A stretch of 55,976 bases of DNA from a virus (Duplodnaviria > Caudoviricetes): the IMG/VR virus record IMGVR_UViG_3300043754_000130, positions 1 to 55,976 of that record; one strand, written 5' to 3'. Shown here in pieces: positions 24,390 to 49,301 of this stretch. A program made the position numbers and the translations under genes. Positions within the stretch are counted from its first letter, which is position 1, and every line of letters starts with the position of its first letter. Below the pieces are notes generated by a model that searched no databases, was not told the origin of the DNA, and worked only from the letters and a program-made list of their open reading frames with translations.

Positions 24390-26006
24390 TCAGACGTGGG
24401 CGCAGCCGGCCCTCAGCAGCATGTCGACGTCGGCCTGGAGCACCGAGACCGTCCGGTCGGCGCCGACGGCGTAGGAGCGCCCATTGTTCAGGTTGAGGCT
24501 CGAGACATTGGGCGGAGCGCGGAGCGTGACCGTGAAGACCACCTCGGGCTCAGGCGCGGGCGCCTCGTTGGCGACCATCGCGGCCGGAATGGCGGGGCTC
24601 GGTGCAGCCACGCCGCCGGCGAGGTCGCGGTAGTAGTCGATCCAGCCCTGAGCGGTGTCTTCCAACATCAGCTCCGTCAGAGCCCAGACCAGAGCGTCGG
24701 CGCGGTCGGGAGAGCCTGAACCCTGGTAGCCGGCGGTCGTGAACATCCCGAGCTGTTCTTCGAGCTCGGCGAACTCGTTGACTGCGCCCTCGGTGGTGAC
24801 GTGGTGTACGCGGCCATCTCGTATCGGTCGGCCGTCGGCGTCGCGCACCGTCTCGTAGAGAGCGGCGATCGGCTCGGCGCGGACGTGCTTGCCGCGGCTG
24901 GCGGTGACCGCCTTGAAGTTCACCGACTCGTCGACGGTGCGGATGGTGTTCTCGACCATCGCGCCGCCGTAGTTGACCTCGGCAACGATCAGGTCGGCGC
25001 CGAACTCGTGGTAGGCGTCGACCGCACGCTTGGCCCATCCCTGCGGCGACAGGCGGCAGGAGCGATCGGCCAGCACGTAGGCGTGGCCGTCGACACCGAG
25101 GCCAACCACGATGATGCCTTGGCAGTCGCCGCCGGTTCCGTCCGAGCCTGAGGGGTCGACCGCGACGATGATGCGGGTCAGGAAATCCGGGCGCGGCCGC
25201 GGGCGCCGCAGCGCCTCGATGCCGTCCAGAGACCACAGCGCGCCCGGGATCTCGCTGAGGTACTCGCCCTCAAGGAACCGTTGGCGCTGCCGGGTCGGCA
25301 GGGCTGCGTAGATCGCGAGCGTCGCCTTCGGTAGGTGCGGGTTGTCGGCTGGGTTCAGCCTGACGTAGGCGTAGGCCTCCGGGTCATCGAGCGGCAGGCC
25401 GTTCTCCGGCCTCACCTTCTCGACGAACTCCTTGTGCGTCCAGTGTCCCCGGCCCACCGGGTTCAGGTCGTAGTAGGCCTTCAGGTTCAACGGTCGGCCG
25501 TCGACCTTCTGGCAGTTCTGCGCCAGGCGCGTCCGAAGCGTCAGGATCGTGTCGTACGCGACCTGCGACGACTCGTTGACGTAGACGGTCGCGTATTCCT
25601 TGCCGAGGATCTTGTCGACCCGCTCCTTGTCGTCCAGACCGCCGAACCAGATCTCAGCGTCGTTCGACAGGGTGACGTACTGATCAGACTTGTTCGTCGT
25701 GTACGGAACGCCCGGAAATGCCAGCCGCATCATCTTCGGCCAGGTGTCCATCATCACGGACTGGCGGACGTCGATGTTGTGGTGACGCGAGATCAGGTGC
25801 CGGCTCTCAGGCGCCATCAACGCCCGATTGGCGATGCACCAGCAGAACCCGAACGTCTTGCCTGAACGGCCGCCCCCGTACCCCAGGATGTGCGTGGCCG
25901 GCGAAGCCGCGGCGTCCCGAAGGAGCGCCTGCCTCTCGGTGAGGCTAAAGGTCCGCGTCGGGGCCAGAGCCGATGTTGACCGTGACGCCGCCGCTGACCT
26001 TCGCAT
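24390..26006 (-). CDS. terL: Terminase large subunit (start uncertain)
   Basis: Walker A GGGRSGKT, Walker B YVNE, LNP coupling motif, nuclease AVDPS and SPDRADAL. Confidence 0.93.
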   Translation of the reverse strand: MRRSAAASRSTSALAPTRTFSLTERQALLRDAAASPATHILGYGGGRSGKTFGFCWCIANRALMAPESRHLISRHHNIDVRQSVMMDTWPKMMRLAFPGVPYTTNKSDQYVTLSNDAEIWFGGLDDKERVDKILGKEYATVYVNESSQVAYDTILTLRTRLAQNCQKVDGRPLNLKAYYDLNPVGRGHWTHKEFVEKVRPENGLPLDDPEAYAYVRLNPADNPHLPKATLAIYAALPTRQRQRFLEGEYLSEIPGALWSLDGIEALRRPRPRPDFLTRIIVAVDPSGSDGTGGDCQGIIVVGLGVDGHAYVLADRSCRLSPQGWAKRAVDAYHEFGADLIVAEVNYGGAMVENTIRTVDESVNFKAVTASRGKHVRAEPIAALYETVRDADGRPIRDGRVHHVTTEGAVNEFAELEEQLGMFTTAGYQGSGSPDRADALVWALTELMLEDTAQGWIDYYRDLAGGVAAPSPAIPAAMVANEAPAPEPEVVFTVTLRAPPNVSSLNLNNGRSYAVGADRTVSVLQADVDMLLRAGCAHV

Positions 26007-28632: not shown

Positions 28633-29696
28633 GCGGCTTGCTCAGCCAGGCAGAGTTCGATGCCGCGCTCGCGCAGCACCCGGCCGACCTCCCGCTCGAT
28701 CTGGTCGCGGGCGTAGGCGTTGGAGACCAGGAGGGCCTTGGTCGGGACCTCCTGAAAACGGGAGTAGCCGTCGATGTAGCCGCGCACCCACGCCTCACCG
28801 CCGGGCGCGGCGCGCACGAGGGCGGCGCGAAGGTCGGCAGGGCCACTCCAGGACCGAGCGGGAGGCGCGGCCGCGCTCTGTTCTGCGACCATCCACTGGT
28901 CGTAGGTCCCGTCGCGCAGCCAGATGTGCAGGCCTGGGCCGCCCGTGCGCTTCACGTCCGGGTCCTCGCGGACGTAGCGCTTCATCGCGGCCACGATCTG
29001 CTCGGGCTCGACGCGGCGCTTGGCCTTCAGCCACTCCGGCCAGGTCTTCTCGCGGCTCTTGCCCCTGCGCCGGCCATCAGGCGTGCAGGCGCCCCAGAGC
29101 TCGGCGAAGTGCGGGTCCTTCTCCCAAGGATGGACCTTCGGAGAAGCCTCCGATGCGACAGGAGACGTAGTCTCCTTCTTATCCTCTACTCTCTTCTCTT
29201 CTATTACAGCGGACAGGGCTGTTTGGGTGTGTTCGTCACGCGCGCCCGACGTCATGTCACACGTGACATTGCCGTTTTCAGCCGTGACACCCCTGGCCCG
29301 GTCGCGCTGGTCACGCTTCCTTTTGGCGTCGTCACGGCGCTTCGAGGTCGCCTTGTCCCACACACCCAGCACGACCTCGCAGGTGGTCGGGTGGTACCAG
29401 CGACCGTCCGCGCACAGGATCCACGGAGCCAGAATCTCGTCCTTCACGGCGAGGAAGGCGTCCACGTCCATGCCGTATCCAGCGGCCTCAGCGAGCTCGT
29501 CGTCGTCGTCCGGCAGCGAGCCGGCGGGCTGCGCCTTGTAGGCCTCACCCCAGAGCATGACGTTCCGGGCGCGCGCCGTGTCGGAGGCGCGGCGCCACCA
29601 CTTCGACTTGCGCAGCCGGTCGAAGTAGAGCGGGAAGTAGTCATGCCCGCGCAGCACACACTCAGGCGGGACCGGAGGCGCTGGGCGTTCAGTCAT
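28629..29696 (-). CDS. Replication initiator (DUF1376/YdaU-like)
   Basis: Start MTERPAPPVPP; YFPLYFDRL, PAGSLPDDDDELA, WILCADGRWYHP; adjacent to dnaB. Confidence 0.85.
   Translation of the reverse strand: MTERPAPPVPPECVLRGHDYFPLYFDRLRKSKWWRRASDTARARNVMLWGEAYKAQPAGSLPDDDDELAEAAGYGMDVDAFLAVKDEILAPWILCADGRWYHPTTCEVVLGVWDKATSKRRDDAKRKRDQRDRARGVTAENGNVTCDMTSGARDEHTQTALSAVIEEKRVEDKKETTSPVASEASPKVHPWEKDPHFAELWGACTPDGRRRGKSREKTWPEWLKAKRRVEPEQIVAAMKRYVREDPDVKRTGGPGLHIWLRDGTYDQWMVAEQSAAAPPARSWSGPADLRAALVRAAPGGEAWVRGYIDGYSRFQEVPTKALLVSNAYARDQIEREVGRVLRERGIELCLAEQAA
29160..29340. promoter_or_regulatory. Putative replication origin inside the initiator gene
   Basis: Pyrimidine tract (29171-29205), clustered GTCAC/GTGAC repeats, palindrome ATGTCAC-AC-GTGACAT at 29254-29269; lambda-O-like placement. 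Confidence 0.55.
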
Positions 29697-31179
29697 CGGC
29701 GTATCCGAAGTTGGTGCGGCCCGCGCCGAACTCCTCACGGGCGAGGTTTCCAAACCGGGTGGTGTCCGCATCGAACGCGAGCCGGACGGTGCCGATCGGG
29801 CCGTGGCGGTTCTTGCCGATGATGACCTCGGCGACGCCTCGGCAGGCGTTCATCTGGTCGATCCAGCTATGGTGCTCGATGCTGTCGGGCTTCGGCTCGG
29901 CGCGCTCCAGGTAGTAGCTCTCGCGGTAGACGAACATGACGCAGTCGGCGTCCTGCTCGATCGAGCCCGACTCCCGCAGGTCGGAGAGTTGCGGCCGCTT
30001 GTCGTCGCGCTGCTCGACCTGGCGGGAAAGCTGCGACAGGGCCAGCACCGGTACGTCGAGATCCTTGGCCATGGCCTTCAGGCCCATGGTGATCTCGGTG
30101 ACCTCTTGCACCCTCCCCTCGCCGCGCCGGCCCGGAGCCGAGGCGAGCTGCAGGTAGTCGACCACGATCAGGTCGAGGCCGCACTGGCGCTTCAGCCGCC
30201 GGGCGCGCGCCGCGAGCTTGTCGATGGTCAGGCCGCCCGTGGCGTCAATGTGCAGGGGCGCGGCCTGGATCTCGATGATGGCGTCGCGGATCCGCGCGTA
30301 CTCGGCGGCGTCAATCTCGCCCTTGCGCATCTTGTCGCCGGAGACGCCGGAAACATCAGCCACGATGCGCAGGCCCAACTGCTCGCCGGACATTTCCAGA
30401 GAGAAGAAACCCACGACGCCGCCATCGGTTGTCTTGCGCGAACCGCTATTATCGTCGTATTTGTACCTACGCGCAACGTTAAATGCTATATTCGTAGCCA
30501 GCGCTGTCTTACCCATACTTGGGCGACCCGCAAGAATTAGAAGATCAGACCCGTGCAGACCGCCGAGTTTTCTGTCGAGGTCTACAAGACCAGTAGAAAC
30601 ACCAGACAGCCCCCCGTCCCGCTCGAAGGCCGCGGTGACGAGCTCCAAGCTCCCGACCATCGTGTCGGAGAAGCTGACGAAGCCCTTGGAGGCTGAGCCA
30701 CGCTCGGCGAGGTCGTAGAGTTGAGCCTCGGCCTGCTCGATGTGCTCCCGCGCCGTGGTCTCGCGGTCCTGGTCCGCAGCCTTCGCGATGTCGCCGCCGA
30801 TCGCCACGATCCGGCGCCGGAGCGCCAGGTCGAGGATGACCCCGGCGTAGTCCTGGGCGACCGCGGCCGGCGGCGCGTGGTCGACGAGATCGGCGAGGTA
30901 GGGGAAGCCCCCCAACTCGACAAAAGCCGGGTCGTGCTTGAACCGCTCGGCGATGGCGAGCGGGTCGATCCCCCTGCCCTGGCGGATCATTAGGGCGAGC
31001 GCCTCGTACATCCGTCCGTGCAGAGGCTCATAGAAGTGCTCGGCCGCGAGCGATTCCGAGACGCGCTCGAGCACGGCGTTGTCGTAGAGGACAGCGCCCA
31101 GCAGACCTTGCTCGGCCTCGACGTTGAAGACGCCCGACGCAGCAGCGTCTGCGTCGGCGGCGGGGGAGAGCGCGTTCAT
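29689..31179 (-). CDS. dnaB: Replicative DNA helicase
   Basis: NVEAEQGLLG, GRPSMGKT, FSLEMS, IVVDYLQL, LSQLSR, SDLRESGSIEQDAD, KNRHGP. Confidence 0.97.
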   Translation of the reverse strand: MNALSPAADADAAASGVFNVEAEQGLLGAVLYDNAVLERVSESLAAEHFYEPLHGRMYEALALMIRQGRGIDPLAIAERFKHDPAFVELGGFPYLADLVDHAPPAAVAQDYAGVILDLALRRRIVAIGGDIAKAADQDRETTAREHIEQAEAQLYDLAERGSASKGFVSFSDTMVGSLELVTAAFERDGGLSGVSTGLVDLDRKLGGLHGSDLLILAGRPSMGKTALATNIAFNVARRYKYDDNSGSRKTTDGGVVGFFSLEMSGEQLGLRIVADVSGVSGDKMRKGEIDAAEYARIRDAIIEIQAAPLHIDATGGLTIDKLAARARRLKRQCGLDLIVVDYLQLASAPGRRGEGRVQEVTEITMGLKAMAKDLDVPVLALSQLSRQVEQRDDKRPQLSDLRESGSIEQDADCVMFVYRESYYLERAEPKPDSIEHHSWIDQMNACRGVAEVIIGKNRHGPIGTVRLAFDADTTRFGNLAREEFGAGRTNFGYADD

Positions 31180-31970
31180 GCGGCCACCCCGAACAGGTCG
31201 ATCTGCTCGGGCTCCGCGGTCGCCGCGCGAGCGGCGCGGGCCTCAACGAAGTCGCAGCAGACGATCTCAACCGCGGGAGCAACGCCGCGCCACTCCTTCC
31301 GGTAGAAGTCGCAGTCGATTCCGCAGTTGGGCGTCAGCGTCAGGCCTGTCTGCGAGTGGAAGGCCTCGTAAGCCTCCGACCGGCGCTCACAATATCCCGG
31401 GCGACCGCTGTACTCGAACGGCGAAGAGCCCTGCGGAATGATGAACACGCCGTAGTCGGCAATGTCGCTCGCGATGTCGATGACGTGCAGGTCGAAGTTT
31501 TTCCCGCGGTACCTCGGCGCGTCACCTGATCGCTTGGTCGCACCAAACGGCGGGTTGCTGATCGCCGTTTCGAACCTGCCTATCTGCGGAAGCGCGAACA
31601 CGTCCGCTTCAATCCAGGTCGCCTCCGGAAGGATCTTCCGGCCTACGGCCGCGTAATCGGGGTTCAGCTCAATGCAGACAATATCGACTGCCGCCCTCGC
31701 CCCCTGGGCCTTCAGCCAGACCTGAAACGCCAAACCTCCGATCCCGGCGCATAGGTCGACCACGCGACCGCGTTCTGGAACCTCGATCGCGAAGTCCCGC
31801 GCCAACATGGGGGGTGTGAAGAAGGCGCCGGCGGCCGAGTTCACATGACGCGCGGACTCCTGCCAGTTCTCCAGCACGAACCAGCGGTCGTCCTCGGTTA
31901 GTCGATCCTTCTTCAGAAGCTCGCACGCCTCCTCGTGAGCCTTAATCTGCGGCTTGGTGAGCTTGCTCAT
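31176..31970 (-). CDS. Amino (N6-adenine-type) DNA methyltransferase
   Basis: GAFFTP, VDLCAGIG (motif I), ISNPPFG (motif IV). Confidence 0.88.
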   Translation of the reverse strand: MSKLTKPQIKAHEEACELLKKDRLTEDDRWFVLENWQESARHVNSAAGAFFTPPMLARDFAIEVPERGRVVDLCAGIGGLAFQVWLKAQGARAAVDIVCIELNPDYAAVGRKILPEATWIEADVFALPQIGRFETAISNPPFGATKRSGDAPRYRGKNFDLHVIDIASDIADYGVFIIPQGSSPFEYSGRPGYCERRSEAYEAFHSQTGLTLTPNCGIDCDFYRKEWRGVAPAVEIVCCDFVEARAARAATAEPEQIDLFGVAA

Positions 31971-32311
31971 GCCGCCCCTCCCGCCCGCTTGGTCAGCACC
32001 GCAAAGACCGCCTCCCCTTGAGCGACTGCAGTTGACCGAGGCTCAGGCGGACACAGCCGGTAGGCTTCGGCGCCGAGGAGACTCGCGGTCGTGTACGGTC
32101 CCTCGATCTTGGCGAGCTGGCGGGTGACGACCTTGTGGGCGGCGCGCAGGACGGCGGCCCGGTGTTGATCCGGCTGGGTCTCCAACAGGGCGGAGACTGC
32201 GGCCTCGGTGTCAGCTTCTATCCGAGCTTGCAGGATCTCGGCGCGGGTCTTGGCGCGGCCGCGGCGCGTCAGGCGCACGACGCTGCCACGGAAAAGCTTC
32301 GGCGCGCTCAT
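31967..32311 (-). CDS. Hypothetical protein
   Basis: ATGA-coupled at both ends. Confidence 0.7.
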   Translation of the reverse strand: MSAPKLFRGSVVRLTRRGRAKTRAEILQARIEADTEAAVSALLETQPDQHRAAVLRAAHKVVTRQLAKIEGPYTTASLLGAEAYRLCPPEPRSTAVAQGEAVFAVLTKRAGGAA

Positions 32312-32505
32312 GCGGCCCTCCAGAACATGTCGAGTTGATCGTCAGCAGGCTCTTCGACCCGGACAGGCTCAGGCTCTCCGCCGCGGTCGGCGAAGGCCTG
32401 GGCGCGCTCTTGGGTGATGTGGAGGCCGATCAGAACGCCGTCTCTGGAGACCTGCCATTCCCATTCGTCGTCACGGCCGGTGGGCTCGACGGTGAAGGTG
32501 GTCAT
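32308..32505 (-). CDS. Hypothetical protein
   Basis: ATGA-coupled at both ends; QLDMF clamp-binding-like motif near the C-terminus. Confidence 0.65.
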   Translation of the reverse strand: MTTFTVEPTGRDDEWEWQVSRDGVLIGLHITQERAQAFADRGGEPEPVRVEEPADDQLDMFWRAA

Positions 32506-33332
32506 GCAGCCCTCGCGGCGAGGATCGCGCGGCCGATCAGTTCGGGGACCTGGGGGACGACGGCGTTTCCGAGGGCTCGCAGTTGAGGCTGCACCACTCG
32601 GCGGGGAACCCCATCAACCACTCGATCCAGCGCGGGTTCAGGAGCCCAAGGAGCGCGTTCCTGCCGTGCGATTGCAGTCCCGACCAACGAGAGGCCGTCG
32701 GCGTTGGCCAAAGCACCTTCGCCGCGACCGCTTCGATGAAAGAACCGCTTGACCCCTTCCTCCGGAAGCGCTCGGCCATCGACGGCGACGGCGCCGACGC
32801 CACACATGCGTCCGCTGTTGGGGTAGGCAACCAGCCATACCCGGTCCCGGATATGTGGGGCGTCAACGGAGGCAGCCGGTATGCAATGCCACTCCGCATC
32901 AAACCCGATCGCGGCCAGGTCTGCGAGAACTCGGCCAAACCAAGCGCCTGGTTGCTCCTCGGGTCCGCGAAGCAGGTCTGCGACGTTCTCCACGATGACG
33001 ACGGCAGGTCGAAGCTCGCCAATAAGTCGGGCGTACTCGCGCCATAGGCCGCTGCGCTCGCCATCAATTCCGGCTTTCTCGCCCGCGCTCGAGAGGTCTT
33101 GGCACGGGAAGCCTCCGCAGATGGCGTCAACGGCAATTCCATCTGCGGCCAGGCGATCGGCGGTGAGGGTTCGCACGTCATCGAAGCACGGCACCTCCGG
33201 CCAGTGTTTGCGGAGCACCGCCCGCGCGTAGGGTTCGATCTCGCAGAAGGCGACGGTCTTGAATCCGCCGGTGCGCTCGAGGCCGAGGCTGAAGCCCCCG
33301 ATCCCAGAGAAGAGGTCGAGGAGCCGGAGCAC
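32502..33332 (-). CDS. C5-cytosine DNA methyltransferase, alpha subunit (motifs I-VIII and X)
   Basis: DLFSGIGG, GFPCQ, ENV, PHIRDRVW, LGNAVVP; motif IX is absent from this frame. Confidence 0.93.
   Translation of the reverse strand: MLRLLDLFSGIGGFSLGLERTGGFKTVAFCEIEPYARAVLRKHWPEVPCFDDVRTLTADRLAADGIAVDAICGGFPCQDLSSAGEKAGIDGERSGLWREYARLIGELRPAVVIVENVADLLRGPEEQPGAWFGRVLADLAAIGFDAEWHCIPAASVDAPHIRDRVWLVAYPNSGRMCGVGAVAVDGRALPEEGVKRFFHRSGRGEGALANADGLSLVGTAIARQERAPWAPEPALDRVVDGVPRRVVQPQLRALGNAVVPQVPELIGRAILAARAA
32537..33181 (-). CDS. C5-methyltransferase beta subunit in an overlapping frame (motif IX and target-recognition region)
   Basis: 214-aa nested ORF with LPTP/WPTP motifs and LNPRWIEWLMGFPAEW (motif IX); true start uncertain. 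Confidence 0.8.
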   Translation of the reverse strand: MTCEPSPPIAWPQMELPLTPSAEASRAKTSRARARKPELMASAAAYGASTPDLLASFDLPSSSWRTSQTCFADPRSNQALGLAEFSQTWPRSGLMRSGIAYRLPPLTPHISGTGYGWLPTPTADACVASAPSPSMAERFRRKGSSGSFIEAVAAKVLWPTPTASRWSGLQSHGRNALLGLLNPRWIEWLMGFPAEWCSLNCEPSETPSSPRSPN

Positions 33333-34060
33333 TAGGCCGCCTCCTGCCGCTCAGCCGCAACCTTCGCCGTCGGCCGCCAGACCGGAGCCGAGACCTCCTG
33401 CAGCACGTATCCGCGGCCCCAGACGTTTTGGATGTGGCCGTCGGCGTTGGCTTTGCGGAGCTTGGCGCGGACCTTGCAGACAAAGACCTCGATGATCTTG
33501 CCGCTCTCAGGCTCGTCCATGCCGCCGTAAAGCTGGGTCAGGATGGCGTCCTTCGAGAGGGTCGAGCCCTTCCGAAGAGCCAGAAGTTCGAGCAGTTGAT
33601 ACTCGCGGCCGGTCAGGTTGATGCGCTCGCCGCCCACCTCGACGCGCTTCTGGTCGAGCAAGACCTTGATCGGTCCAGCGTTGATTACGGCCTCCGCGTG
33701 GCCCCTAGAGCGTCGGATAACGGCGCGGACCCGGGCGACGAGCTCGTCCTTGTGGATCGGCTTCGGCAGGTAGTCGTCAGCGCCGGAGTCGTAGGCCGCG
33801 ACCCGCGTCTCGGTGCTCTGGTCGTCGGAAATGATGAGGACCGGGGCTGAGACCTTCGCCGCTCGGATGCGCCGCAGCACGTCCAGGCCGGAGATGTCCA
33901 GAAGCCCCCCGCCGACCAAGACCGCGTCGAAGTCGAACCGCTTGGCGAGATCGACCCCCTCTTCGCCGAGATCGGTGTCCTCGATGTTGAAGCCTGCCGC
34001 CCGCAGCACGAACAGCATGGCGTGAGTGGTGCCGATATTGTCGATGACGAGCAGGCGCAT
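33332..34060 (-). CDS. ctrA: CtrA homologue with a degenerate receiver domain
   Basis: TDLGEEGVDL, GADDYLPKPIHKDELVAR, RRSRGHA, LTGREYQLLELLALRKG, LYGGMDEPE, VWGRGYVL are CtrA signatures; the phosphoacceptor position is Gly. Confidence 0.92.
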   Translation of the reverse strand: MRLLVIDNIGTTHAMLFVLRAAGFNIEDTDLGEEGVDLAKRFDFDAVLVGGGLLDISGLDVLRRIRAAKVSAPVLIISDDQSTETRVAAYDSGADDYLPKPIHKDELVARVRAVIRRSRGHAEAVINAGPIKVLLDQKRVEVGGERINLTGREYQLLELLALRKGSTLSKDAILTQLYGGMDEPESGKIIEVFVCKVRAKLRKANADGHIQNVWGRGYVLQEVSAPVWRPTAKVAAERQEAA

Positions 34061-34846
34061 TTAGGCAGCCTCCCTCAGAGCTTCAGTGATCGCGTCGGCG
34101 GAGACGTCGAACAGGTGCGCGACCTCGTCGAGCCGCCAGTTGGCTTCCAGAAAGCGGCGGATGAACCCGAGCTTGCGCGGGGTCATGGTGACGCCGCGGA
34201 CGCGGGGAGCGCCGGCCCATCCGGGGTGTTTGGGGAGCTTGGGTTTGGGGTTGTCGGAGACCAGACGGAGCTTCGGGACTCGACCGGAGGCTCGCCCGCG
34301 CTCCAAATTGATCGCCCCCATGCGGGCGCCGTTCTCACGGCTGGCGCGGAGGGAGTTGACGACGTTGTAGGCTTCGTCGCGCTTCCACTTGTTGCGGAAG
34401 ATGATCCCCGCGACGGCGGCCGGGGTCGTGTCCAGCTTCTCGGCGATCTCCGTCTGGGACTTGCCCGCGAACCACATGGCCTTGACCTGAAGGGTGCGTT
34501 CGCTGGGGACACTGGACCGGCGCTTGTGCGTCCGGTCGATGCCTGCGCGCTTCAGGACCCAGGTGATCGTCGAGTTCGGGACGGACGTGAGAGCCACGAT
34601 GACTTTGCGCTCCTTGCCCTCCTTGTAGAGCTTGACGACCTCGGCCTCCTTCTCGGGGGAGAGCCGGGTCTTCGGGGCGCGAAGCTCTATGCCGTTGCGG
34701 TTCAGGACGTCGGACACCGTGGACTTGCCGACGCCGGTCGCGTCCATGATCTCCCGACGCGGGGCCTTGTCCGCGTACATCTGCAGGATGACGGCTTCGG
34801 TCTCGGGAGAGAGCGGGACGCCGCGCTGATGTTGGGGGGCGCTCAT
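34061..34846 (-). CDS. Multi-HTH protein with a GcrA N-terminal-like unit
   Basis: Three to four HTH units; QVKAMWFAGKSQTEIAEKLDTTPAAVAGIIFR resembles the GcrA N-terminus. Confidence 0.65.
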   Translation of the reverse strand: MSAPQHQRGVPLSPETEAVILQMYADKAPRREIMDATGVGKSTVSDVLNRNGIELRAPKTRLSPEKEAEVVKLYKEGKERKVIVALTSVPNSTITWVLKRAGIDRTHKRRSSVPSERTLQVKAMWFAGKSQTEIAEKLDTTPAAVAGIIFRNKWKRDEAYNVVNSLRASRENGARMGAINLERGRASGRVPKLRLVSDNPKPKLPKHPGWAGAPRVRGVTMTPRKLGFIRRFLEANWRLDEVAHLFDVSADAITEALREAA

Positions 34847-35151
34847 GCGCGCACCCCCAGGTCGACAGGTTCCAGCAGCTTGGAGATCAGCGAGCCGTCA
34901 GGGCGGTAGACGCGGCGGAAGCGTGTCGAGCGGTAATAGCTCTTGACGTATCGCCGCCCCAAGCAAGGCTTGCCGACGCCGGGTGTCGGACACTCCGAAA
35001 CATCCACGTTGTAGTCACCGTCGACATCTGGCGTGGGGCTCACCAGACTTACCGTGTAACAAGACCCCTTCTGCAGGGGACACGGTGTTCCCCATGGGGC
35101 TGGGCCGTCATCCACGCACACAACGACATCACCGGGAGCGAAGTCACACAT
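34843..35151 (-). CDS. Hypothetical protein
   Basis: Start MCDFAPGDVVVCVDD; common phage FxxGDxVVCV..RFR pattern. Confidence 0.7.
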   Translation of the reverse strand: MCDFAPGDVVVCVDDGPAPWGTPCPLQKGSCYTVSLVSPTPDVDGDYNVDVSECPTPGVGKPCLGRRYVKSYYRSTRFRRVYRPDGSLISKLLEPVDLGVRA

Positions 35152-35383
35152 GAGCGCGCCCCCTCTGGAGATGACCGAGGACGCGGGCTTCCAGATCAGC
35201 CTGCGCCTTCCGAGCCCCCTTGGAGTGGGCCGAGCGGAATCGTGCCCGCTCTTGCAGGAGGCGGCGGTACTCGATGTCGACTTGCGCCAAGGTTGGCTTG
35301 ACGATTCCGACCCAGACCAGCGCATCGCCGACCAGGTCGCGGAGGATGGACCGGCGCGTGTGGGCCTTGCGGGGGCGGTTCAT
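35144..35383 (-). CDS. Hypothetical protein
   Basis: Coupled in the operon. Confidence 0.65.
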   Translation of the reverse strand: MNRPRKAHTRRSILRDLVGDALVWVGIVKPTLAQVDIEYRRLLQERARFRSAHSKGARKAQADLEARVLGHLQRGRAHV

Positions 35384-35568
35384 CGGCCGATTCCCGCCGT
35401 CCAGATCAACGATAGGAGCGAAGCCATCGCGGCGGCGAGCGATGAGACAGCAGCGACCTTCAGGATGGTCTGGATCGGTTCAACCCCGATCGTCGCGATA
35501 CCGAACGGCGTGATCGCCAGTGCGACGAGCGAAAAGGTCAGCATCAGCTTGAGTTGGATCGGCATCAC
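35380..35568 (-). CDS. Small two-TM membrane protein
   Basis: Two hydrophobic segments; coupled at both ends. Confidence 0.65.
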   Translation of the reverse strand: MMPIQLKLMLTFSLVALAITPFGIATIGVEPIQTILKVAAVSSLAAAMASLLSLIWTAGIGR

Positions 35569-35846
35569 GCAGCACTCCTCATCTCAGGTTGAGCCACCGC
35601 GCCCCACAGGCTCAGGATCGCCCGCGTGGCCTCGTTGATGCTCTTGCTCTCGCTCAGGATCGGGGGCTCGCCGCGGAGGCGGCGCAGATGGGTCTGGATG
35701 GCCCGCTCGCGGTACTCGGGGAGGACGAAGCCCCGGCACGTCAGGACGACCACGCCGCCGGAGTGAACCGTGAAGCAGAGGTTGTTGCCCTCGCCGTAGC
35801 GGGTGACGTTCAGGGCGCCGAAGGTCTGAGGAAGTTCGCTGGTCAT
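35565..35846 (-). CDS. Hypothetical protein
   Basis: Start MTSELPQ through an ATGA overlap. Confidence 0.65.
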   Translation of the reverse strand: MTSELPQTFGALNVTRYGEGNNLCFTVHSGGVVVLTCRGFVLPEYRERAIQTHLRRLRGEPPILSESKSINEATRAILSLWGAVAQPEMRSAA

Positions 35847-36139
35847 TGGATGACGGGCCTCCCGGTCGAGGGGTCGCGCTGCATGAGCGAGATACGCTTG
35901 GCCTGATCGAGGGCATGGCCGGGGTTGAGGGCGACCTTCAGGAGGTCGAACACCGTCGCGACATCTCCCTCGTTGACCGCCTCCTTCAGCGTCTCCAGAT
36001 CGGCCTTTCGAAGGCTTTCGAGCGCAGCCGACGTGAAGTCCACCCGGCGCTCTTTCAGCTCGTCGATCAGTTCTTGGTCCGACATCTCGTCGAGAACCTC
36101 GTCGACCCGGATATTGACGTTGACGAACCCCCGCATCAC
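35843..36139 (-). CDS. Hypothetical protein
   Basis: DEMSDQELIDELKER motif; coupled at both ends. Confidence 0.7.
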   Translation of the reverse strand: MMRGFVNVNIRVDEVLDEMSDQELIDELKERRVDFTSAALESLRKADLETLKEAVNEGDVATVFDLLKVALNPGHALDQAKRISLMQRDPSTGRPVIQ

Positions 36140-36414
36140 AGCTCACCCAGCGAAGAGAGGTACAGGTCGATCAGCGCTTCTTCTTCCTGACGCGCAGCCT
36201 TGCTGACCTTCCGCAGCTTCAGGATCTTGCGCATGATCTTGGTTTGAAAGCCCTCTCCCTTGGCCTCAGCGAACACTTCCTTCAGGTCGTTGGCGATGGC
36301 CTCCTTGTCTTCTTCAAGGCGCTCGATGCGCTCAAAGAACGACTTCAGGCGCCCTTGCGCCTGCTGCGTCAGAACGTCCGGATGAGCGGCGAATTGTTCA
36401 GCGTGTTCGGTCAT
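36136..36414 (-). CDS. gapR: GapR/DUF2312 nucleoid-associated protein
   Basis: HPDVL..AQGRLKSFFERIERLEEDK..KEVFAEAKGEGF..RQEEEALIDLYLSSLGEL closely follows Caulobacter GapR as recalled. Confidence 0.92.
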   Translation of the reverse strand: MTEHAEQFAAHPDVLTQQAQGRLKSFFERIERLEEDKEAIANDLKEVFAEAKGEGFQTKIMRKILKLRKVSKAARQEEEALIDLYLSSLGEL

Positions 36415-36594
36415 GTTTGTCCCTCTCAGGCCGCTCTTTGAGGGAGGCGGCGGATCCCTACGCTTTCAGGTCGGATGGACTCTCGACCTGTCGGCTAACC
36501 TCTTGTTCAGACGCCGTTTTGACGTTTGGAGCGGCCGAAGGACTTGGCGCTCTTGGAGCGGCCAGCCCGTTCGAGAATCCGCAGGGCCGAGTTC

Positions 36595-37071
36595 TCAAGA
36601 AGAGATCCGGCCGCGACGCCAATTTCCCCGAGGTTCCGGATCACCCAACCCAGCCCCGCCATCGGCGCGAGGACCGGCAGCAAAGGCCCGCGCCCAAAGC
36701 GCTTTGGCGTTGCTCCTGCGTTCCTCCACCCGGCGTTGGGCATGAGCGATCTCCTCAAGTTCGGTCTGGATGAATTGGTCGAGGGCGCCGCCCATGACCG
36801 CGCGGAGCACGGTGACGGCGACGCGAGGGCCGCCATTGGGGTGACGCCAAATCAGGTCGATGGTGCTGCCGGTCGCCGCGCCTTCGAAGACGGAGCGGGC
36901 CTGCACCACGGTCAGGTCGAAGGTCCGGGCCAGTTCCTTCTGGCTGCGGAACTCCGTTCTCGCCCAGCAGGCGAGGGCTTCGCGCGTCGAGCGATTATTC
37001 GTGGAGGTTGAGCAATTGGTCGTGGAAAAAGCACGATTTCCCAGAGGGACAGCCATGTTTGCCTCGGTCAT
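36595..37071 (-). CDS. Putative CII-like HTH regulator
   Basis: SQKELARTFDLTVVQARSVFEG HTH-like segment; downstream of cro. Confidence 0.55.
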   Translation of the reverse strand: MTEANMAVPLGNRAFSTTNCSTSTNNRSTREALACWARTEFRSQKELARTFDLTVVQARSVFEGAATGSTIDLIWRHPNGGPRVAVTVLRAVMGGALDQFIQTELEEIAHAQRRVEERRSNAKALWARAFAAGPRADGGAGLGDPEPRGNWRRGRISS

Positions 37072-37436
37072 GTTCTGGACCTGTAGGCAGACCGGACCTG
37101 GAGGGGCCGCAGATGTCGGAAGTGGTGTTTCTTACGGGTACTGAAGAGGCTCGGGGCTGGTTGCAGCTGGCCCGGAGCGCCGAGACGCTGGACGACGTGG
37201 CGGCTTTGCTGAGCCTCCACTCGGCAGCGATGAGACGTCGAAGAGTTGCGGCCGACGCTGGTTCCCTTAATCCCAGCGTCGGCCACTTCGCCGTTCAGCG
37301 TGGCCGGTCGGCGGCGCGAAGCTGAACGGAGAATGGGGGAGCGCGCGCCGCCGGGAGGACGGGAGGCAGCGGCGCGCGCGGTCGCCAGCCCCAGGGGGAG
37401 GAAGGCCGGCGAATGGGGTGAGGTCGCGAGGCGCAT
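37068..37436 (-). CDS. Low-complexity linker ORF spanning RNA hairpins
   Basis: TGATG and ATGA coupling at its ends; product does not look folded. Confidence 0.35.
   Translation of the reverse strand: MRLATSPHSPAFLPLGLATARAAASRPPGGARSPILRSASRRRPATLNGEVADAGIKGTSVGRNSSTSHRCRVEAQQSRHVVQRLGAPGQLQPAPSLFSTRKKHHFRHLRPLQVRSAYRSRT
37113..37325 (+). CDS. Putative small antisense protein
   Basis: GGAGGGG RBS before ATG; MSEVVFLTGTEEARGWLQLARSAETLDDVAALL. Confidence 0.4.
   Translation: MSEVVFLTGTEEARGWLQLARSAETLDDVAALLSLHSAAMRRRRVAADAGSLNPSVGHFAVQRGRSAARS
37331..37418 (-). ncRNA. Cuckoo/alpha-r14-like double hairpin with CCUCCC loops
   Basis: Two adjacent stems with loops UUCCUCCCCCUGG and UGCCUCCCGUCCUCCCG; G-U pairing favours the minus strand. 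Confidence 0.6.
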
Positions 37437-37654
37437 CAGGCGGCGCCCCCTGGTTCGAAACCAAGGCAGATCTTGCAGGTGTCACGATGACGGTCGGACT
37501 GCGCGTTCAGAGCGGCGCGGGCGCATTCCCGCTGCCAGAGAAGGTCCAGCAGTTCGATCTGGACCGGCGTCAGGTGCTCAAGCGGGAACTCGCGCAACAA
37601 GCGGAGGACCGAGCGCTCCTGACCATAGGTCAACATCAAGCCGCCCGCGCTCAT
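37436..37654 (-). CDS. Hypothetical protein
   Basis: Start MSAGGLML through an ATGA overlap; HRDTCKIC motif. Confidence 0.6.
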   Translation of the reverse strand: MSAGGLMLTYGQERSVLRLLREFPLEHLTPVQIELLDLLWQRECARAALNAQSDRHRDTCKICLGFEPGGAA

Positions 37655-37797
37655 CGGGCACCCCCGATCCTGCGACCGAAGACACAGCAGACGAACAGGC
37701 CGAGCCCGACGGCTCCGACCTTGAGCACGGTCCACGCCACCCAGACCAACAGGCCGAGCAACGCGGCGTCGAGCAGGAGGGCGAGGAACTGGCCCAT
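37651..37797 (-). CDS. 48-aa membrane peptide
   Basis: Translated by hand: MGQFLALLLDAALLGLLVWVAWTVLKVGAVGLGLFVCCVFGRRIGGAR; coupled at both ends. Confidence 0.6.
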   Translation of the reverse strand: MGQFLALLLDAALLGLLVWVAWTVLKVGAVGLGLFVCCVFGRRIGGAR

Positions 37798-37928
37798 CAG
37801 CCGATCCCCGCAAAGGAATGCGACCAGCTCGGATGCGGGTCCTTCAGCCTACGGCAGATCTTCAGGGCGAGCGGGACGGGCCCGAACGTCCACACAACCA
37901 GGAACTCAGCGACGTGCAGGGGGCTCAT
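37797..37928 (-). CDS. 43-aa peptide
   Basis: Translated by hand: MSPLHVAEFLVVWTFGPVPLALKICRRLKDPHPSWSHSFAGIG; coupled at both ends. Confidence 0.5.
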   Translation of the reverse strand: MSPLHVAEFLVVWTFGPVPLALKICRRLKDPHPSWSHSFAGIG

Positions 37929-38368
37929 TTGGAGCACCCGCAGGCATTCGCTGAACGTACCGTCCGGTTCGGTGAGGAATTCGCGAGATGGGATGTCCGG
38001 CCTTTGACCTTGCCGAATCCATACAAGTTGCAGAAAGAACGACGATTTTTTACGAAATTGTAAGAATCCGACTGGACTCCCACCACCGCGGTAGGATTAA
38101 TTTTCCCCGTGTAGGGGAGCTTAATAGTGGCTGCGGAGTTGGTTTCGTCGCTGCTCGACGAGGTGGGCGGGGGCGACGTGAGTACGTCGGAGTTCTTTAC
38201 GGTCGACGCTGTAAGACAGACGGACGACCCAGCGAGTTGTTTGAGACAGACGATGCGGTTTGTCCGCGCACAAGCCAGACAAAGGCCCAACCTGGGCAAC
38301 CCAAACATCGCTTGGATGCGGGCGCGCTGCGCGGCGTGCGGGGAATGCGGAGCCTGAGCGTCGCGCAT
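37925..38368 (-). CDS. Linker ORF coupled to cro
   Basis: TGATG overlap with the cro stop and ATGA overlap with the next gene; atypical codon usage. Confidence 0.4.
   Translation of the reverse strand: MRDAQAPHSPHAAQRARIQAMFGLPRLGLCLACARTNRIVCLKQLAGSSVCLTASTVKNSDVLTSPPPTSSSSDETNSAATIKLPYTGKINPTAVVGVQSDSYNFVKNRRSFCNLYGFGKVKGRTSHLANSSPNRTVRSANACGCSK
38127..38357 (+). CDS. Putative small antisense protein convergent with cro
   Basis: GGGGAG RBS, GTG start, AT-rich upstream region, CxxCxxC C-terminus. Confidence 0.5.
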   Translation: MAAELVSSLLDEVGGGDVSTSEFFTVDAVRQTDDPASCLRQTMRFVRAQARQRPNLGNPNIAWMRARCAACGECGA

Positions 38369-38565
38369 CAGGCCGCACATTTGCTGGCGTCCTTCACCCA
38401 ATGAGCGACGGGAATTCCAAGCTCGCGCTCAATGCGAACCGCCAGGGCCAGCGACGGCTTGCGCTTGCCGCTGGCCAGGTCGCTCGCATATCCCTTGCTG
38501 AGGTTCAGCCGGTCGCGGAGCGCCTGGGCGGAGATGGCCGGTTGCTCTGTGTTGGCGGTGTCCAT
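38368..38565 (-). CDS. cro: Cro-like HTH repressor
   Basis: LNLSKGYASDLASGKRKPSLALAVRIE; divergent from cI. Confidence 0.85.
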   Translation of the reverse strand: MDTANTEQPAISAQALRDRLNLSKGYASDLASGKRKPSLALAVRIERELGIPVAHWVKDASKCAA

Positions 38566-38573
38566 AGCGAGAC

Positions 38574-38657
38574 GTTCGCACAGTGCGAACTTCAAATCAA
38601 CAGGAAGTTCGCAACCCGCGTGACGACGCACGCGTTCACGCAATGCAGATTGCGAAC
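38574..38657. promoter_or_regulatory. O_R-like operators, GTTCGCA-N3-TGCGAAC
   Basis: Perfect 17-bp palindrome at 38574-38590; degenerate copies near 38607 and ending at 38657; lies between cro and cI. Confidence 0.8.
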
Positions 38658-39323
38658 ATGACCCCGAAAGCTTTGCCGAAAAGCGGTTGGCACCTGCGCG
38701 AGTGGCGCCTGAGCCGCGGACTGTCCCAAGAGCAGCTCGCCGAGCGGATCGGCACGTCAAAGGGATACGTCAGCGATCTCGAGCGCGGCGAGCGTCGGTA
38801 CAATCAGGACCTCGTCGAGGGCCTTGCCGGCGCGCTGGACATCTCGGTAGCGCAGCTCCTCGGCCAGAGCCCGACGGAGAATAAAGCCGAGCGCCTCGTC
38901 CCCGTAGTCGGCTACGTCGGAGCCGACACTGAGGGCTCAGTCCTGTTCGCCAACGGGCAGGGAACGGGAGAACTGGCCCCCATACCGCCAGGAGGAACAG
39001 AGGCAGCGAGCGCCTTGGGCGTAAGGGGACACTCTATGAAAGGCTTCGCCGACGACGGCGCCCTCATCTATTTCGAGGAGCAGCACTCCAAGCCGACCCG
39101 CGACATGCTGGGGCACGTCGTCGTGGTCGAGACCCGCGACGGCAAGGTTCTGGTGAAGCGGCTCCTGAAGGGTTCACACCCCGGCGTCTACGATCTGGAA
39201 TCGATCGTCGGGCCGACGCTGGAGGACGTGGAGATCCGATGGGCGGCGCTCGTGACCGCCATCGTCCCGCCAGCTCAAGCGCGCAAGGTCATCGTGCGCG
39301 ACGGGGACAACCAGGCCGCCTAA
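38643..39323 (+). CDS. cI: CI-like repressor (HTH + S24 peptidase); alternative start at 38658
   Basis: LREWRLSRGLSQEQLAERIGTSKGYVSDLERG; GHSM (catalytic Ser); LVKRL (catalytic Lys). Confidence 0.92.
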   Translation: MQIANMTPKALPKSGWHLREWRLSRGLSQEQLAERIGTSKGYVSDLERGERRYNQDLVEGLAGALDISVAQLLGQSPTENKAERLVPVVGYVGADTEGSVLFANGQGTGELAPIPPGGTEAASALGVRGHSMKGFADDGALIYFEEQHSKPTRDMLGHVVVVETRDGKVLVKRLLKGSHPGVYDLESIVGPTLEDVEIRWAALVTAIVPPAQARKVIVRDGDNQAA

Positions 39324-39348
39324 TAGACACTCACTCCTGACGCTTAAG

Positions 39349-39373
39349 AGCCCCGCTTCGCCGGGGCTTTTTT
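39349..39373 (+). terminator. Intrinsic terminator after cI
   Basis: AGCCCCG-CTTCGC-CGGGGCT-TTTTT. Confidence 0.8.
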
Positions 39374-39390
39374 ATTGCCTCGCGCCAGCC

Positions 39391-39441
39391 GTTCGCAGAA
39401 CGCGAACTTTCCCATTGCCAAGCTGTTCGCACTGTGCGAAC
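39391..39441. promoter_or_regulatory. O_L-like operators
   Basis: GTTCGCAgaaCGCGAAC (39391-39407) and GTTCGCActgTGCGAAC (39425-39441) upstream of the early operon. Confidence 0.82.
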
Positions 39442-39486
39442 TTCCTTCCATCGACGGAGCGGCGACGCTCCGAACGGGAGGACGAA

Positions 39487-39804
39487 ATGGTCAATTCCGC
39501 AGAGACGAAGTGGACGCCGGGACCCTGGAAGGTCGACTTCAGCCACCCCAACAATCTGCCGGGTGGGATTTCCCAAGCCGCTCGCAGCCGGCGCTCTATC
39601 ACCCGGTTCAACGCGTTCTCGCGTCCCACCACCGCTGAGGCGCTGGCCAACGCGCACCTCTTCGCCGCGGCGCCGGACCTCTACGAGTCCCTGGCCGACA
39701 CGCTGGCTCTCGCTGAGCTGAAGTACGGCAACTCCAACGCGACCGCCGTGGAGTGCTTCACGCAAGCCCGCGCTGCCCTCGCCAAAGCTCGCGGGGAGGC
39801 CTGA
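39487..39804 (+). CDS. Phage early hypothetical protein
   Basis: GGGAGG RBS; WTPGPW..ANAHLFAAAPDLYESL family pattern. Confidence 0.8.
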   Translation: MVNSAETKWTPGPWKVDFSHPNNLPGGISQAARSRRSITRFNAFSRPTTAEALANAHLFAAAPDLYESLADTLALAELKYGNSNATAVECFTQARAALAKARGEA

Positions 39805-42881: not shown

Positions 42882-43480
42882 GCAAGCCAGCCAGCAAGCC
42901 CGCGTTCTTCCTCGACCCGATCAAGGAGGCCCGCGCCGTCGCCAGCCTGAAGGACAGCCTGGCGAAGATGGGCGCGGCCGACGACGAGGAGATCGTCGAG
43001 AGCTCGATCGAGGGCGAGACCAGCCTCTACGAGGCCATCGACCTGATGCTGGAGCGGATCCGCAACGCTCAGGTGATGACCGAAGGGCTAGCCGCGGTGA
43101 TCGCCGGCCTGGAGTCCCGCAAGGCCCGCTACGCCAAGACGATCGAGACGCACCGGACCCTGATCGAACAAGCGCTGATGATCGCGGAGATCGAGGAGAA
43201 GATCGAGCGGCCGACGGCCACGGTCAGCCTCGCCGCCCGCCAGCCCAAGGTCGAGGTCCAGACCGAGGCGGACATCCCGGCCCGCTTCTTCAACGCGGCG
43301 CCGCCGGTGCTCGACAAGAAGGCGCTGCTCGCGGCGCTGAAGGAGCGCGCCAAGGCCGTGGCTGAGGTCTCCGACCTTCCGGCGGAAGAGCGCGAGGCCG
43401 CCATCGCTGCGCTGCCCCCCGAGATCCCCGGCGCGTGCCTGAGCAACGCCGCCCCGTCCATCAACATAAGGGTGAAGTGA
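42878..43480 (+). CDS. Siphovirus Gp157-family protein
   Basis: SIEGET, KIERPTATVSL, IPARFF..PVLDKKALLAALK, IPGACLSN; precedes the recombinase. Confidence 0.85.
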   Translation: MSKPASKPAFFLDPIKEARAVASLKDSLAKMGAADDEEIVESSIEGETSLYEAIDLMLERIRNAQVMTEGLAAVIAGLESRKARYAKTIETHRTLIEQALMIAEIEEKIERPTATVSLAARQPKVEVQTEADIPARFFNAAPPVLDKKALLAALKERAKAVAEVSDLPAEEREAAIAALPPEIPGACLSNAAPSINIRVK

Positions 43481-44457
43481 TGAACGCCATCGTCCCCGTC
43501 CGCCCCTCTTCCGTCTACTCCGGCGCCCAGCTCTCGCTGATCCGCAAGACGGTCGCCGCCGACTGCAACGAGGCTGAGTTCGACCTGTTCGTGACGGTCG
43601 CCAGGCACACCGGCCTTGACCCGTTCCGCAAGCAGGTCAGCGCGCTGGTCTTCAACAAGAAGCAGCCCGAGAAGCGGCGCATGGCGATCGTCACCACGAT
43701 CGACGGCCTCCGCGTGACTGCGGCGCGGAGCCTCCGCTACCGGCCCGACGACGACGAGCCGCAGTTCGAATACGACCCCGAGGAGAAGAGCGAGACCAAC
43801 CCGCTCGGCCTCGTGAAGGCCAAGGTCAAGATTTTCATGCGCGACGAGGGCGGCTCCGAATGGCGCACCGTCGTCGGCGTCTCCTACTGGGGCGAGTTCG
43901 CGCCCATCACCGAGGAGTGGGCGGAGGACCCGGAGACGGGCAAGCGCCGGAAGACCGGCCGCATGATGCTCGACCGGTCGGGAAACTGGTTCCGAATGCC
44001 GCGCCTCATGCTGGCGAAGACGGCCGAGGCCCAGGCGCTCCGCAAGGCGTTCCCCGAAGACCTCTCGAGCCTCTACGAGGGCTCCGAACTCGACCGCGCC
44101 CGCGCGCTCGACATCGAAGACCTGACGCCTTCCCAGATGATCGGCGAGCACAACGCCGCCACTCGGCTGGAGAAGATCGGCGGGGCCAACACCGTCCTGT
44201 TCCAGTTTCTGCCGAACGAGGCGCTGGAGTCGGTCCCGCTCGGCAAGCTGGCCGATCGCATCCTCGCCACCGCCGAAGGCTTCACCAGCCTCGCTCAGGC
44301 CCGCTGGTTCATGGAGGCCAACACCCAGCCCCTCCGCGAGTTCTGGGCGCGCGCGCCCGGCGAGGCGCTGGAGGTCAAGAAGCGGCTGGAGGTGCTCGCC
44401 GCGAAGCTCCAGCAGGCGGAAGCCGAGGCGACCAAGGAAGCGGAGGAGGCAGCGTGA
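43480..44457 (+). CDS. bet: RecT/Bet single-strand annealing recombinase
   Basis: EFDLF..GLDPFRKQ, TIDGLR..A, W..MPRLMLAKTAEAQALRKAFPE. Confidence 0.92.
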   Translation: MNAIVPVRPSSVYSGAQLSLIRKTVAADCNEAEFDLFVTVARHTGLDPFRKQVSALVFNKKQPEKRRMAIVTTIDGLRVTAARSLRYRPDDDEPQFEYDPEEKSETNPLGLVKAKVKIFMRDEGGSEWRTVVGVSYWGEFAPITEEWAEDPETGKRRKTGRMMLDRSGNWFRMPRLMLAKTAEAQALRKAFPEDLSSLYEGSELDRARALDIEDLTPSQMIGEHNAATRLEKIGGANTVLFQFLPNEALESVPLGKLADRILATAEGFTSLAQARWFMEANTQPLREFWARAPGEALEVKKRLEVLAAKLQQAEAEATKEAEEAA

Positions 44458-49107: not shown

Positions 49108-49301
49108 GCGCCACCAAGCTCGCCTACCGCATCAACGAGGCGGCCGAGGCCGTTGGGCTGAGCCGCGCCACGATCTACAACGCGATCAACGCGGGCGAAC
49201 TCGAGATGGGCAAGCTGCACGGTCGGTCGGTCATCCGGGCAGACGTGCTGATGGCTTGGTTCGAGCGCCAGTACGCGCCGGTCAAGAAGACCGCCGCTTG
49301 A
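49104..49301 (+). CDS. xis: Excisionase (HTH_17-like)
   Basis: LAYRINEAAEAVGLSRATIYNAINAGEL; convergent with int and overlapping its 3' end. Confidence 0.88.
   Translation: MSATKLAYRINEAAEAVGLSRATIYNAINAGELEMGKLHGRSVIRADVLMAWFERQYAPVKKTAA

Follow-up and report, generated by a model that had tools for sequence, protein, structure and literature searches.

The window, meaning the whole stretch of 55,976 nucleotides (nt) that was analysed (IMG/VR record IMGVR_UViG_3300043754_000130), is a provirus record with 66.7% G+C that carries a ctrA-like gene on its minus strand. Judged by its sequence, the product of this gene is a phage-borne CtrA paralogue whose receiver has turned into a pseudo-receiver. 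CtrA, the master cell-cycle regulator of alphaproteobacteria, controls replication initiation, division, flagella and pili, and is normally governed by phosphorylation and proteolysis. The phage copy probably acts outside this host control circuit, as many divergent CtrA copies also seem to. On balance we favour its being a phosphorelay-independent CtrA-type DNA-binding protein that is made in lytic growth and targets CtrA sites of the host. The gene and its ribosome-binding site are located as follows:

33332..34060, minus strand: ctrA-like gene of 242 amino acids, with ATG at 34058-34060 and TAG at 33332-33334; pseudo-receiver and OmpR-type winged helix.
34069..34076, minus strand: ribosome-binding site GAGGGAGG, 8 nt before the ATG, read from the sequence.

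The membership of the protein in the CtrA family is supported by several searches. Pfam identified Response_reg (PF00072) at residues 7-112 and Trans_reg_C (PF00486) at residues 144-220, both with E 1.5e-17, and phrog_731 was matched over the full length. The top NCBIfam family was CtrA (NF045991, 264.7 bits, residues 2-222) and the second was PhoP, far behind with 132.8 bits; the equivalog cut-off of NF045991, 350 bits, was not reached. In a sequence search for solved relatives the best match was the receiver domain of Brucella CtrA (4qpj chain C, E 9.5e-29). The AlphaFold2 model, made from a 49-row alignment (A3), has a mean predicted local distance difference test (pLDDT) of 89.4 and comprises a (beta-alpha)5 receiver of normal form and, after it, a winged helix, so that Pfam and the model both give the architecture of CtrA, a receiver and then an OmpR-type winged helix. 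A 56-row tree, obtained by a quick IQ-TREE search and having long outgroup branches, contains a branch of support 100 that splits 51 CtrA and CtrA-like rows, among them the phage protein, from 5 other OmpR-family rows. No frameshift was identified in the open reading frame (ORF) against the 49 homologues of A3, and its G+C content at third codon positions is 0.87, in line with other phage genes. The ctrA-like gene is flanked on either side by more than 15 kilobases (kb) of phage genes, and its product is at most 57% identical to any of 80 bacterial CtrAs, as expected of a phage gene and not of a host flank. A sequence-only reading of the window had taken the product for a CtrA-family protein of a phage, which agrees with CtrA being its best NCBIfam family and with the phage genes around it. 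The protein is not filed as CtrA proper because the equivalog score and the acceptor Asp both fail.

The main departure from CtrA is found at the phospho-site, where two places are affected:

33911..33913, minus strand: codon GGC of Gly50, in the phospho-acceptor Asp column (alignments A1, A2 and A3).
34037..34042, minus strand: codons of Asp7 and Asn8, a degenerate acidic pocket (E-D-D in canonical CtrA).

Among the five canonical active-site residues Asp7, Ser78 and Lys100 are kept, the second acidic Asp is replaced by Asn8 and the acceptor Asp by Gly50. The phage protein is one residue shorter near the N-terminus and Gly50 therefore corresponds to D51 of Caulobacter CtrA, which we take to be the number of the acceptor and which agrees with the alignment of the Brucella CtrA receiver. 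Acceptor aspartates sit at the end of strand beta3 in receivers, and Gly50 is placed by AlphaFold2 at the end of the predicted beta3 (residues 46-50). The aligned segment is VLVGGGLLD in the phage protein and LLDLNLPD in other CtrAs; the change from DLN to GGG takes several substitutions, and adjacent conserved positions are changed too (L51G, P54L and G79D). The acceptor column is Asp in the 17 nearest database homologues aligned (picked from 120 listed), in 80 of 80 CtrA loci of bacterial genomes and in 80 of 80 metagenome CtrA loci among the matches listed, which are canonical CtrAs at no more than 57% identity and do not include the sisters at 59-62%. The acidic pocket is E-D-D in 80 of the 80 bacterial genome loci and D7-N8 in the phage protein. 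Both marks of CtrA at this site, the acceptor Asp and the E-D-D pocket, are therefore absent from a protein that still matches PF00072 (E 1.5e-17) with 2 of 5 active-site residues gone, as a pseudo-receiver does.

A Logan contig of 27,231 nt with depth 19.2, taken from a second assembly, presented 0 differences over 32400-35400. This match makes an assembly slip unlikely; the run is probably the source sample and hence not independent biology. The residues quoted in the sequence-only reading, IDNI and AVLVGGGLLD, are residues 6-9 and 46-55, and the position that it gave for the Gly codon was exact by alignment. The elements that it described as intact (KP at K100-P101, GADDY, the winged helix, VWGRGY and the C-terminal AA) are present, and all the strings that it quoted were located.

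Beside the lost acceptor, the protein keeps Ser78, Lys100-Pro101, GADDY (93-97), the winged helix and the terminal Ala-Ala. Three regions contain most of these elements:

33707..33814, minus strand: alpha4-beta5-alpha5 face, residues 83-118, with G93, D95, D96, P101, R110, R116 and R117.
33395..33679, minus strand: CtrA-type winged-helix DNA-binding domain, residues 128-222, with YGGMDEPE, CKVRAKL and VWGRGY.
33335..33394, minus strand: C-terminal tail, residues 223-242, ending in Ala-Ala (...QEAA), the Ala-Ala codons being 33335-33340.

The seven residues named for the alpha4-beta5-alpha5 face are invariant in the 49 sequences of A3. A homodimer prediction for the receiver (residues 1-122, two copies, A3) scored 0.40 against a mark of 0.42 and is used neither way. 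The recognition-helix segment IIEVFVCKVRAKL is formed by residues 189-201 and the wing VWGRGY by residues 213-218. The Ala-Ala end of CtrA is used for degradation by ClpXP in Caulobacter; of the bacterial genome CtrAs, 41/80 end in AA and 75/80 in A.

The phage protein and four others, P0003, P0004, P0006 and P0091 (53-62% identical), form a clade with support 95. Conservation was compared over 158 columns in which the 80 bacterial CtrAs agree to 95% or more. In the receiver the phage protein matches 47 of 74 such columns and its four Asp-bearing sisters 56-63 of 75. The corresponding figures for the DNA-binding domain are 55 of 79 for the phage protein and 57-60 of 79 for the sisters. The receiver changes unique to the phage protein cluster at the active site (D8N, D50G, L51G, P54L, T72A and G79D), and some further unique ones are conservative (A12T, Y42F, L49V, K86R and K119R). 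This profile of losses indicates that constraint was relaxed at the phospho-site specifically, and the remainder looks maintained. Since the closest relatives at the DNA level share about 55% protein identity, synonymous sites are saturated.

Loss of the acceptor was also identified in other CtrA-like genes of viral contigs. In all, 24 CtrA-like rows were obtained from two IMG/VR scans, and 22 of them cover the acceptor column. From the first scan 16 of 27 loci were used (L002-L017, with a match into the receiver; L018-L028 match the DNA-binding part only). From the second, 8 of the 80 loci returned were added (at least 39% identity and not re-fetches), the dropped ones being re-fetches and ordinary OmpR-family genes at no more than 38% identity. 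The column contains Asp in 11 of the 22, Glu in 6, Asn in 2, and Ala, Gly and Ser (the last in a deleted loop) in one each. Asp is thus absent in 11 of 22 other CtrA-like genes of viral contigs versus 0 of 160 canonical CtrAs. Identity between the full-length viral rows and the 80 bacterial CtrAs never exceeds 76%. The bacterial CtrAs themselves are on average about 90% identical to their own consensus, and the viral rows are therefore not host genes at provirus edges.

A search of 1.84 billion representatives of 50%-identity clusters returned 150 CtrA-like proteins, and 133 of them span both domains. In these divergent representatives the acceptor is Asp in 80 and another residue in 53 (about 40%): Glu in 14, Gly in 11 (one of them, P0258, looks misaligned), Ala in 8, Asn in 6, Ser in 5 and others in 9. 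The two sets compare as follows:

Lys100 kept: 66/80 in the Asp set, 18/53 in the non-Asp set.
Ser or Thr at position 78: 69/80 in the Asp set, 39/53 in the non-Asp set.
G93, D95, D96, R110, R116 and R117 kept: at least 96% in both sets.
DNA-binding residues Y178, R198, K200, T212, W214 and G217: at least as conserved in the non-Asp set as in the Asp set.
Ala-Ala end: 20/80 in the Asp set, 24/53 in the non-Asp set.

P101 is kept at 87% in the non-Asp representatives and at 96% or above in those with Asp. The Ala-Ala end was identified in 7 of the 11 Gly-type representatives, the exceptions being P0185, P0205, P0232 and P0258; these seven, with the 90%-cluster mates of P0189, make up alignment A4. 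The four full-length members of the P0189 cluster derive from different contigs and all have Gly, and Gly at the acceptor site is stable in this other lineage. The nearest Gly-type representative, P0143, was not found on viral contigs. A FastTree tree of 159 rows needs at least 33 changes between Asp and non-Asp, to be read as 'many times' and not as a count. Among a sample of 401 genomes of the class of G002, a CtrA match was found in 289 and two matches in 5 (G244 and G044 being counted in this tally only); the second CtrA-like copies that were read in bacterial genomes all keep Asp. By their residues, then, divergent CtrA copies have lost the Asp repeatedly yet kept the dimerisation and DNA-binding residues, and half of the viral-contig copies are among them. 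Whether the loss recurs, a question raised by the sequence-only reading, is thus answered in the affirmative for the family and in the negative for this lineage, where it is a singleton.

A wider proposal can be put forward tentatively, at somewhat less than an even chance: divergent CtrA paralogues, many of them on phages or mobile elements, would form a large undescribed class repeatedly freed from CckA-ChpT, takeover of the host regulon would be a general viral strategy and the gene described here a Gly-type example of it. In this tentative proposal the acceptor Asp would have been exchanged for Glu, as a natural phosphomimic, or for Gly, Ala, Asn or Ser, or else the whole receiver would have been deleted or replaced. 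The dimer face and the DNA-binding domain of CtrA would be retained throughout, in many cases along with the Ala-Ala degron. If active, such proteins would be a direct handle on phage reprogramming of the alphaproteobacterial cell cycle, and natural experiments on the capacities of an unphosphorylatable CtrA. Of greater interest than the single gene is the pattern across the family, in which about 40% of the divergent clusters have no Asp and the dimer face is intact.

Two further kinds of CtrA-derived protein were observed. L018 (4926-5393), L021 (2578-3042) and L024 (4944-5441) encode proteins of about 155-165 residues with the CtrA-type DNA-binding domain only, and in L021 a heptad-like, coiled-coil-looking N-terminus stands in the place of the receiver; these receiver-less proteins are a putative second route to an unphosphorylatable CtrA. 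A C-terminal extension of about 70-80 residues is present in P0005, P0007, P0051, P0091, L011 (5001-5912) and L014 (5001-5906). The extended proteins still end in Ala-Ala or a similar pair, and the extension is a winged helix, with a PF12802 (MarR-type) match in P0007.

For the gene of the window, the favoured mechanism starts from the lost acceptor. Judging by response-regulator chemistry, no phosphoryl group would be accepted from CckA-ChpT. Residue conservation and the analogy with HP1043, ChxR and GlnR suggest that the protein would dimerise via alpha4-beta5-alpha5 without phosphorylation, and conservation together with the analogy to atypical regulators suggests binding to CtrA-type sites. 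The timing of phage transcription would set its activity, and ClpXP might contribute by degrading the protein via the Ala-Ala end. The targets would be host CtrA-controlled promoters or the origin, because the phage is without CtrA boxes. In lytic growth the host cell-cycle programme would be overridden or jammed, either by activation or by mere occupation of sites.

The motif TTAA-N7-TTAA was counted in the window 0 times at up to one mismatch (0.54 expected) and 8 times at up to two mismatches versus 13.96 expected, which is below chance. TTAA tetramers number only 8 in the whole window, and neither CtrA boxes nor half-sites are enriched in it. The sequence-only reading had likewise found no full box in the phage. 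Two of the 8 tetramers lie 24 nt apart, at 38097 and 38121, in the repressor/cro switch region. The region 37976-38125 is A+T-richer (about 45% G+C), and the spacing of the pair (38097-38124) differs from the N7 of a CtrA box. As for the phosphorelay-independent mimic that the sequence-only reading had proposed, its residue basis stands (acceptor Asp and acidic pocket lost; dimer face, winged helix and Ala-Ala kept) and the singleton nature of the loss in this lineage speaks against it. The proposal is reasonable but, for the gene described here, unproven; the accompanying ideas of a 'G1 lock' and of 'origin silencing' are extrapolations from Caulobacter.

The protein could instead poison host CtrA as a dominant-negative partner or decoy, through mixed dimers, titration of ChpT or CckA, or competition for ClpXP or its adaptors by the Ala-Ala end, and this is considered unlikely. 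The dimer-face residues are the same as in canonical CtrA and the Ala-Ala end is kept, both as a decoy would have them. The DNA-binding domain would be superfluous for such a role, yet it is kept (55 versus 57-60 of 79 columns), also across the 53 non-Asp representatives. Helix alpha1 is the usual partner-specificity surface of receivers; it is heavily altered here (A12T, I15M, E16L, L17F and M18V), which argues against tight binding of ChpT. A precedent from the same pathway is the response-regulator-like direct inhibitor of CckA reported in PMC9430884.

Several observations weigh against an active, maintained regulator of host sites. The acceptor loss is a singleton in its clade, P0003, P0004, P0006 and P0091 all having Asp, and the terminal branch of the phage protein is 0.91, compared with 0.29-0.75 in the four sisters. 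No homologue above 62% identity was found among 5.8 billion proteins, though phages with 84-86% identical portals exist, and there is therefore no sign of an allele kept in sister phages. Substitutions unique to the phage protein fall on near-invariant positions of the DNA-binding domain (N175T, H176Q, D191E and T212N), and one extra residue is present at 187, within the alpha2-alpha3 loop; these changes could reflect altered specificity, or relaxed constraint and some decay. The 133 representatives are proteins without genomic context that may or may not come from mobile elements, and the 159-row tree is poorly supported (14 of 155 branches starred). The host is probably alphaproteobacterial, given the CtrA ancestry of the gene and the G+C content; no transfer RNA gene was found in the window, and the best terminase match is to Synechococcus phages at 49.7% identity, there being no close phage relative.

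Some of these points would equally fit a captured host-type gene in decay, which lost phosphorylation by chance and drifts without function: the singleton loss on a long terminal branch, the unique substitutions and the insertion in the DNA-binding domain, the lack of a close homologue despite related phages and an NCBIfam score well under the CtrA cut-off. This is thought quite improbable. The ORF is uninterrupted from end to end and shows no frameshift relative to the 49 homologues, a good ribosome-binding site precedes it, it overlaps the adjacent gene, its codon bias is like that of the rest of the phage and its predicted fold is confident. The additional losses are gathered at the phospho-site and not evenly spread, core and dimer-face invariants are all kept, and several other lineages likewise maintain Gly together with a terminal Ala-Ala.

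Least probable of all is that the protein regulates phage genes through a diverged motif, as a middle or late activator descended from CtrA, since its place in the early operon upstream of replication and structural genes, the changes in or near recognition elements (D191E, T212N and K199A) that could shift specificity and the TTAA pair at 38097 and 38121 in the repressor/cro switch are countered by the absence of any CtrA-type dyad in the window (near-matches 8 versus 13.96 expected), by the failure to identify a repeated candidate operator and by the unchanged core of the recognition helix (C195, K196, R198, K200 and L201).

The gene preferred here as a phosphorelay-independent regulator of host sites lies among the genes of a temperate siphovirus-like phage:

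4851-8942, minus strand: tail protein.
11046-13844, minus strand: tape measure.
22157-24379, minus strand: portal.
24390-26006, minus strand: large terminase.
29689-31179, minus strand: DnaB helicase.
31176-31970, minus strand: second DNA methyltransferase (phrog_3820), with a small ORF between both methyltransferases.
32502..33332, minus strand: C5-cytosine DNA methyltransferase (PF00145, E 1.4e-41), downstream of the ctrA-like gene; its GTG start and the TAG of the ctrA-like gene have one base in common.
34061..34846, minus strand: multi-helix-turn-helix (HTH) protein of 261 amino acids, upstream of the ctrA-like gene (HTH_23 and HTH_28; three or four HTH units).
38583..39323, plus strand: CI/LexA-type repressor (HTH_3 and Peptidase_S24 in Pfam; phrog_4), divergent from the leftward early operon.
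43435-44457, plus strand: RecT-like protein.
49282-50526, minus strand: integrase.

The multi-HTH gene, the ctrA-like gene, the C5-cytosine methyltransferase, the small ORF, the second methyltransferase and DnaB form a tight leftward run, where the TAA stop of the multi-HTH gene abuts the ctrA-like ATG. This position suggests that the ctrA-like gene is expressed with the early lytic genes and not in the lysogen. Residues 114-176 of the multi-HTH protein gave a weak match to GcrA (E 0.006, 17.4 bits, below the cut-off of 26.9). GcrA is the other cell-cycle regulator of Caulobacter. No homologue of this HTH protein was found beside other viral CtrA-like genes, and neither methyltransferase matched the CcrM-type N6_N4_Mtase family of Pfam. 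The same module was identified on other viral contigs: ctrA-like, dcm-like and DnaB genes in L013, and ctrA-like and DnaB genes in L011; in L014 a CI-like gene is located upstream of the CtrA-like gene. A sigma-70 scan of 29000-39500 found no promoter-like site, with terminator-like sites at chance level. The stretch occurs in one DNA sequencing run, from a soil metagenome that is probably the source, and in no listed RNA run, which has no bearing on expression.

Other features of the phage and its relatives were also observed. The portal relatives P0275, P0276 and P0277 are 84-86% identical and come from public assemblies, the longest contig having 53,283 bases; given such portals and no CtrA-like protein above 62% identity in the same collection, the early region may be mosaic. 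A perfect 20-nt direct repeat, CGCCCTCAATCGCGCCCTAA, is present at 50568-50587 and 50779-50798, 211 bases apart and just upstream of the integrase start; it may represent integrase arm sites or part of att, and apart from this single repeat the search for att-site repeats found nothing. Beyond the integrase there are about 5 kb more of phage-like genes, including an SbcD-like exonuclease at 54119-55384. Eight other IMG/VR proviruses (L019, L020, L022, L023, L025, L026, L027 and L028), of 11 to 41 kb and five of them of about 40 kb, end in a 3' fragment of canonical CtrA (the last 55-65 residues), at most about 200 bases from the record edge. Their fragments start at the same point (…LNHLYGGMDEPE…) after unrelated sequence, with the match at about 5001-5200 of each locus, and the eight look like a prophage family that integrates into the 3' part of the host ctrA.

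Compared with known systems, the phage protein resembles alphaproteobacterial CtrA (NF045991) in its receiver and OmpR-type winged helix, in 53-58% identity over residues 1-222, in the YGGMDEPE, CK-R-KL and VWGRGY signatures, in the GADDY and KP motifs and in the C-terminal Ala-Ala. It differs in the acceptor Gly, the D-N instead of E-D-D pocket, the diverged helix alpha1, the one-residue insertion in the alpha2-alpha3 loop, a tail about 10 residues longer and its location in a prophage. T168 and T170 of Caulobacter CtrA, which 10.1101/739516 links to the choice of promoter class, correspond to T167 (kept) and S169 of the phage protein. No description of a full-length phage CtrA without the acceptor Asp was found in the open-access texts searched; the phage work on CtrA in PMC9437464 and PMC10589892 concerns host CtrA acting on or binding phage DNA.

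Receiver-less CtrA-like ORFs are known in GenBank phages: RDJL Phi 1 ('ctrA'), Rhodobacter phages of the RcAqua type and Paracoccus phage vB_PmaS-R3. The ORF of RDJL Phi 1, a Roseobacter phage, is reported in PMC5026251 to resemble a portion of CtrA. These ORFs share with the phage protein a phage-borne, unphosphorylatable CtrA-type DNA-binding domain (at most 54.9% identity, residues 148-218), whereas the protein described here contains a full-length inactivated receiver. The laboratory alleles ctrA(D51E) and ctrA(D51A) change the same residue, but are engineered single substitutions in a host gene; the phage paralogue is divergent and has Gly and further decay of the active site. Glu occurs naturally at the acceptor in 6 homologues of viral contigs and 14 representatives, comparable to ctrA(D51E). 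PMC10589892 reports that the D51A and D51E forms give only partial support to Jorvik phage infection in Rhodobacter.

The closest functional likeness is to HP1043, ChxR and GlnR, where a degenerate receiver site is combined with a retained alpha4-beta5-alpha5 surface and winged helix; HP1043 of H. pylori (PDB 2hqr) was matched by sequence with E 1.3e-17. Many such atypical regulators (ChxR, HP1043 and GlnR) are reported to dimerise unphosphorylated, mostly on alpha4-beta5-alpha5, with constitutive dimers as the usual mode (PMC12632262), and further sources for the analogy are PMC3960148 and PMC8345958. Unlike the phage protein, HP1043, Chlamydia ChxR and actinomycete GlnR are chromosomal, belong to other lineages and include no CtrA paralogue. 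By this analogy, the phage protein would work like an atypical OmpR/PhoB regulator that descends from CtrA.

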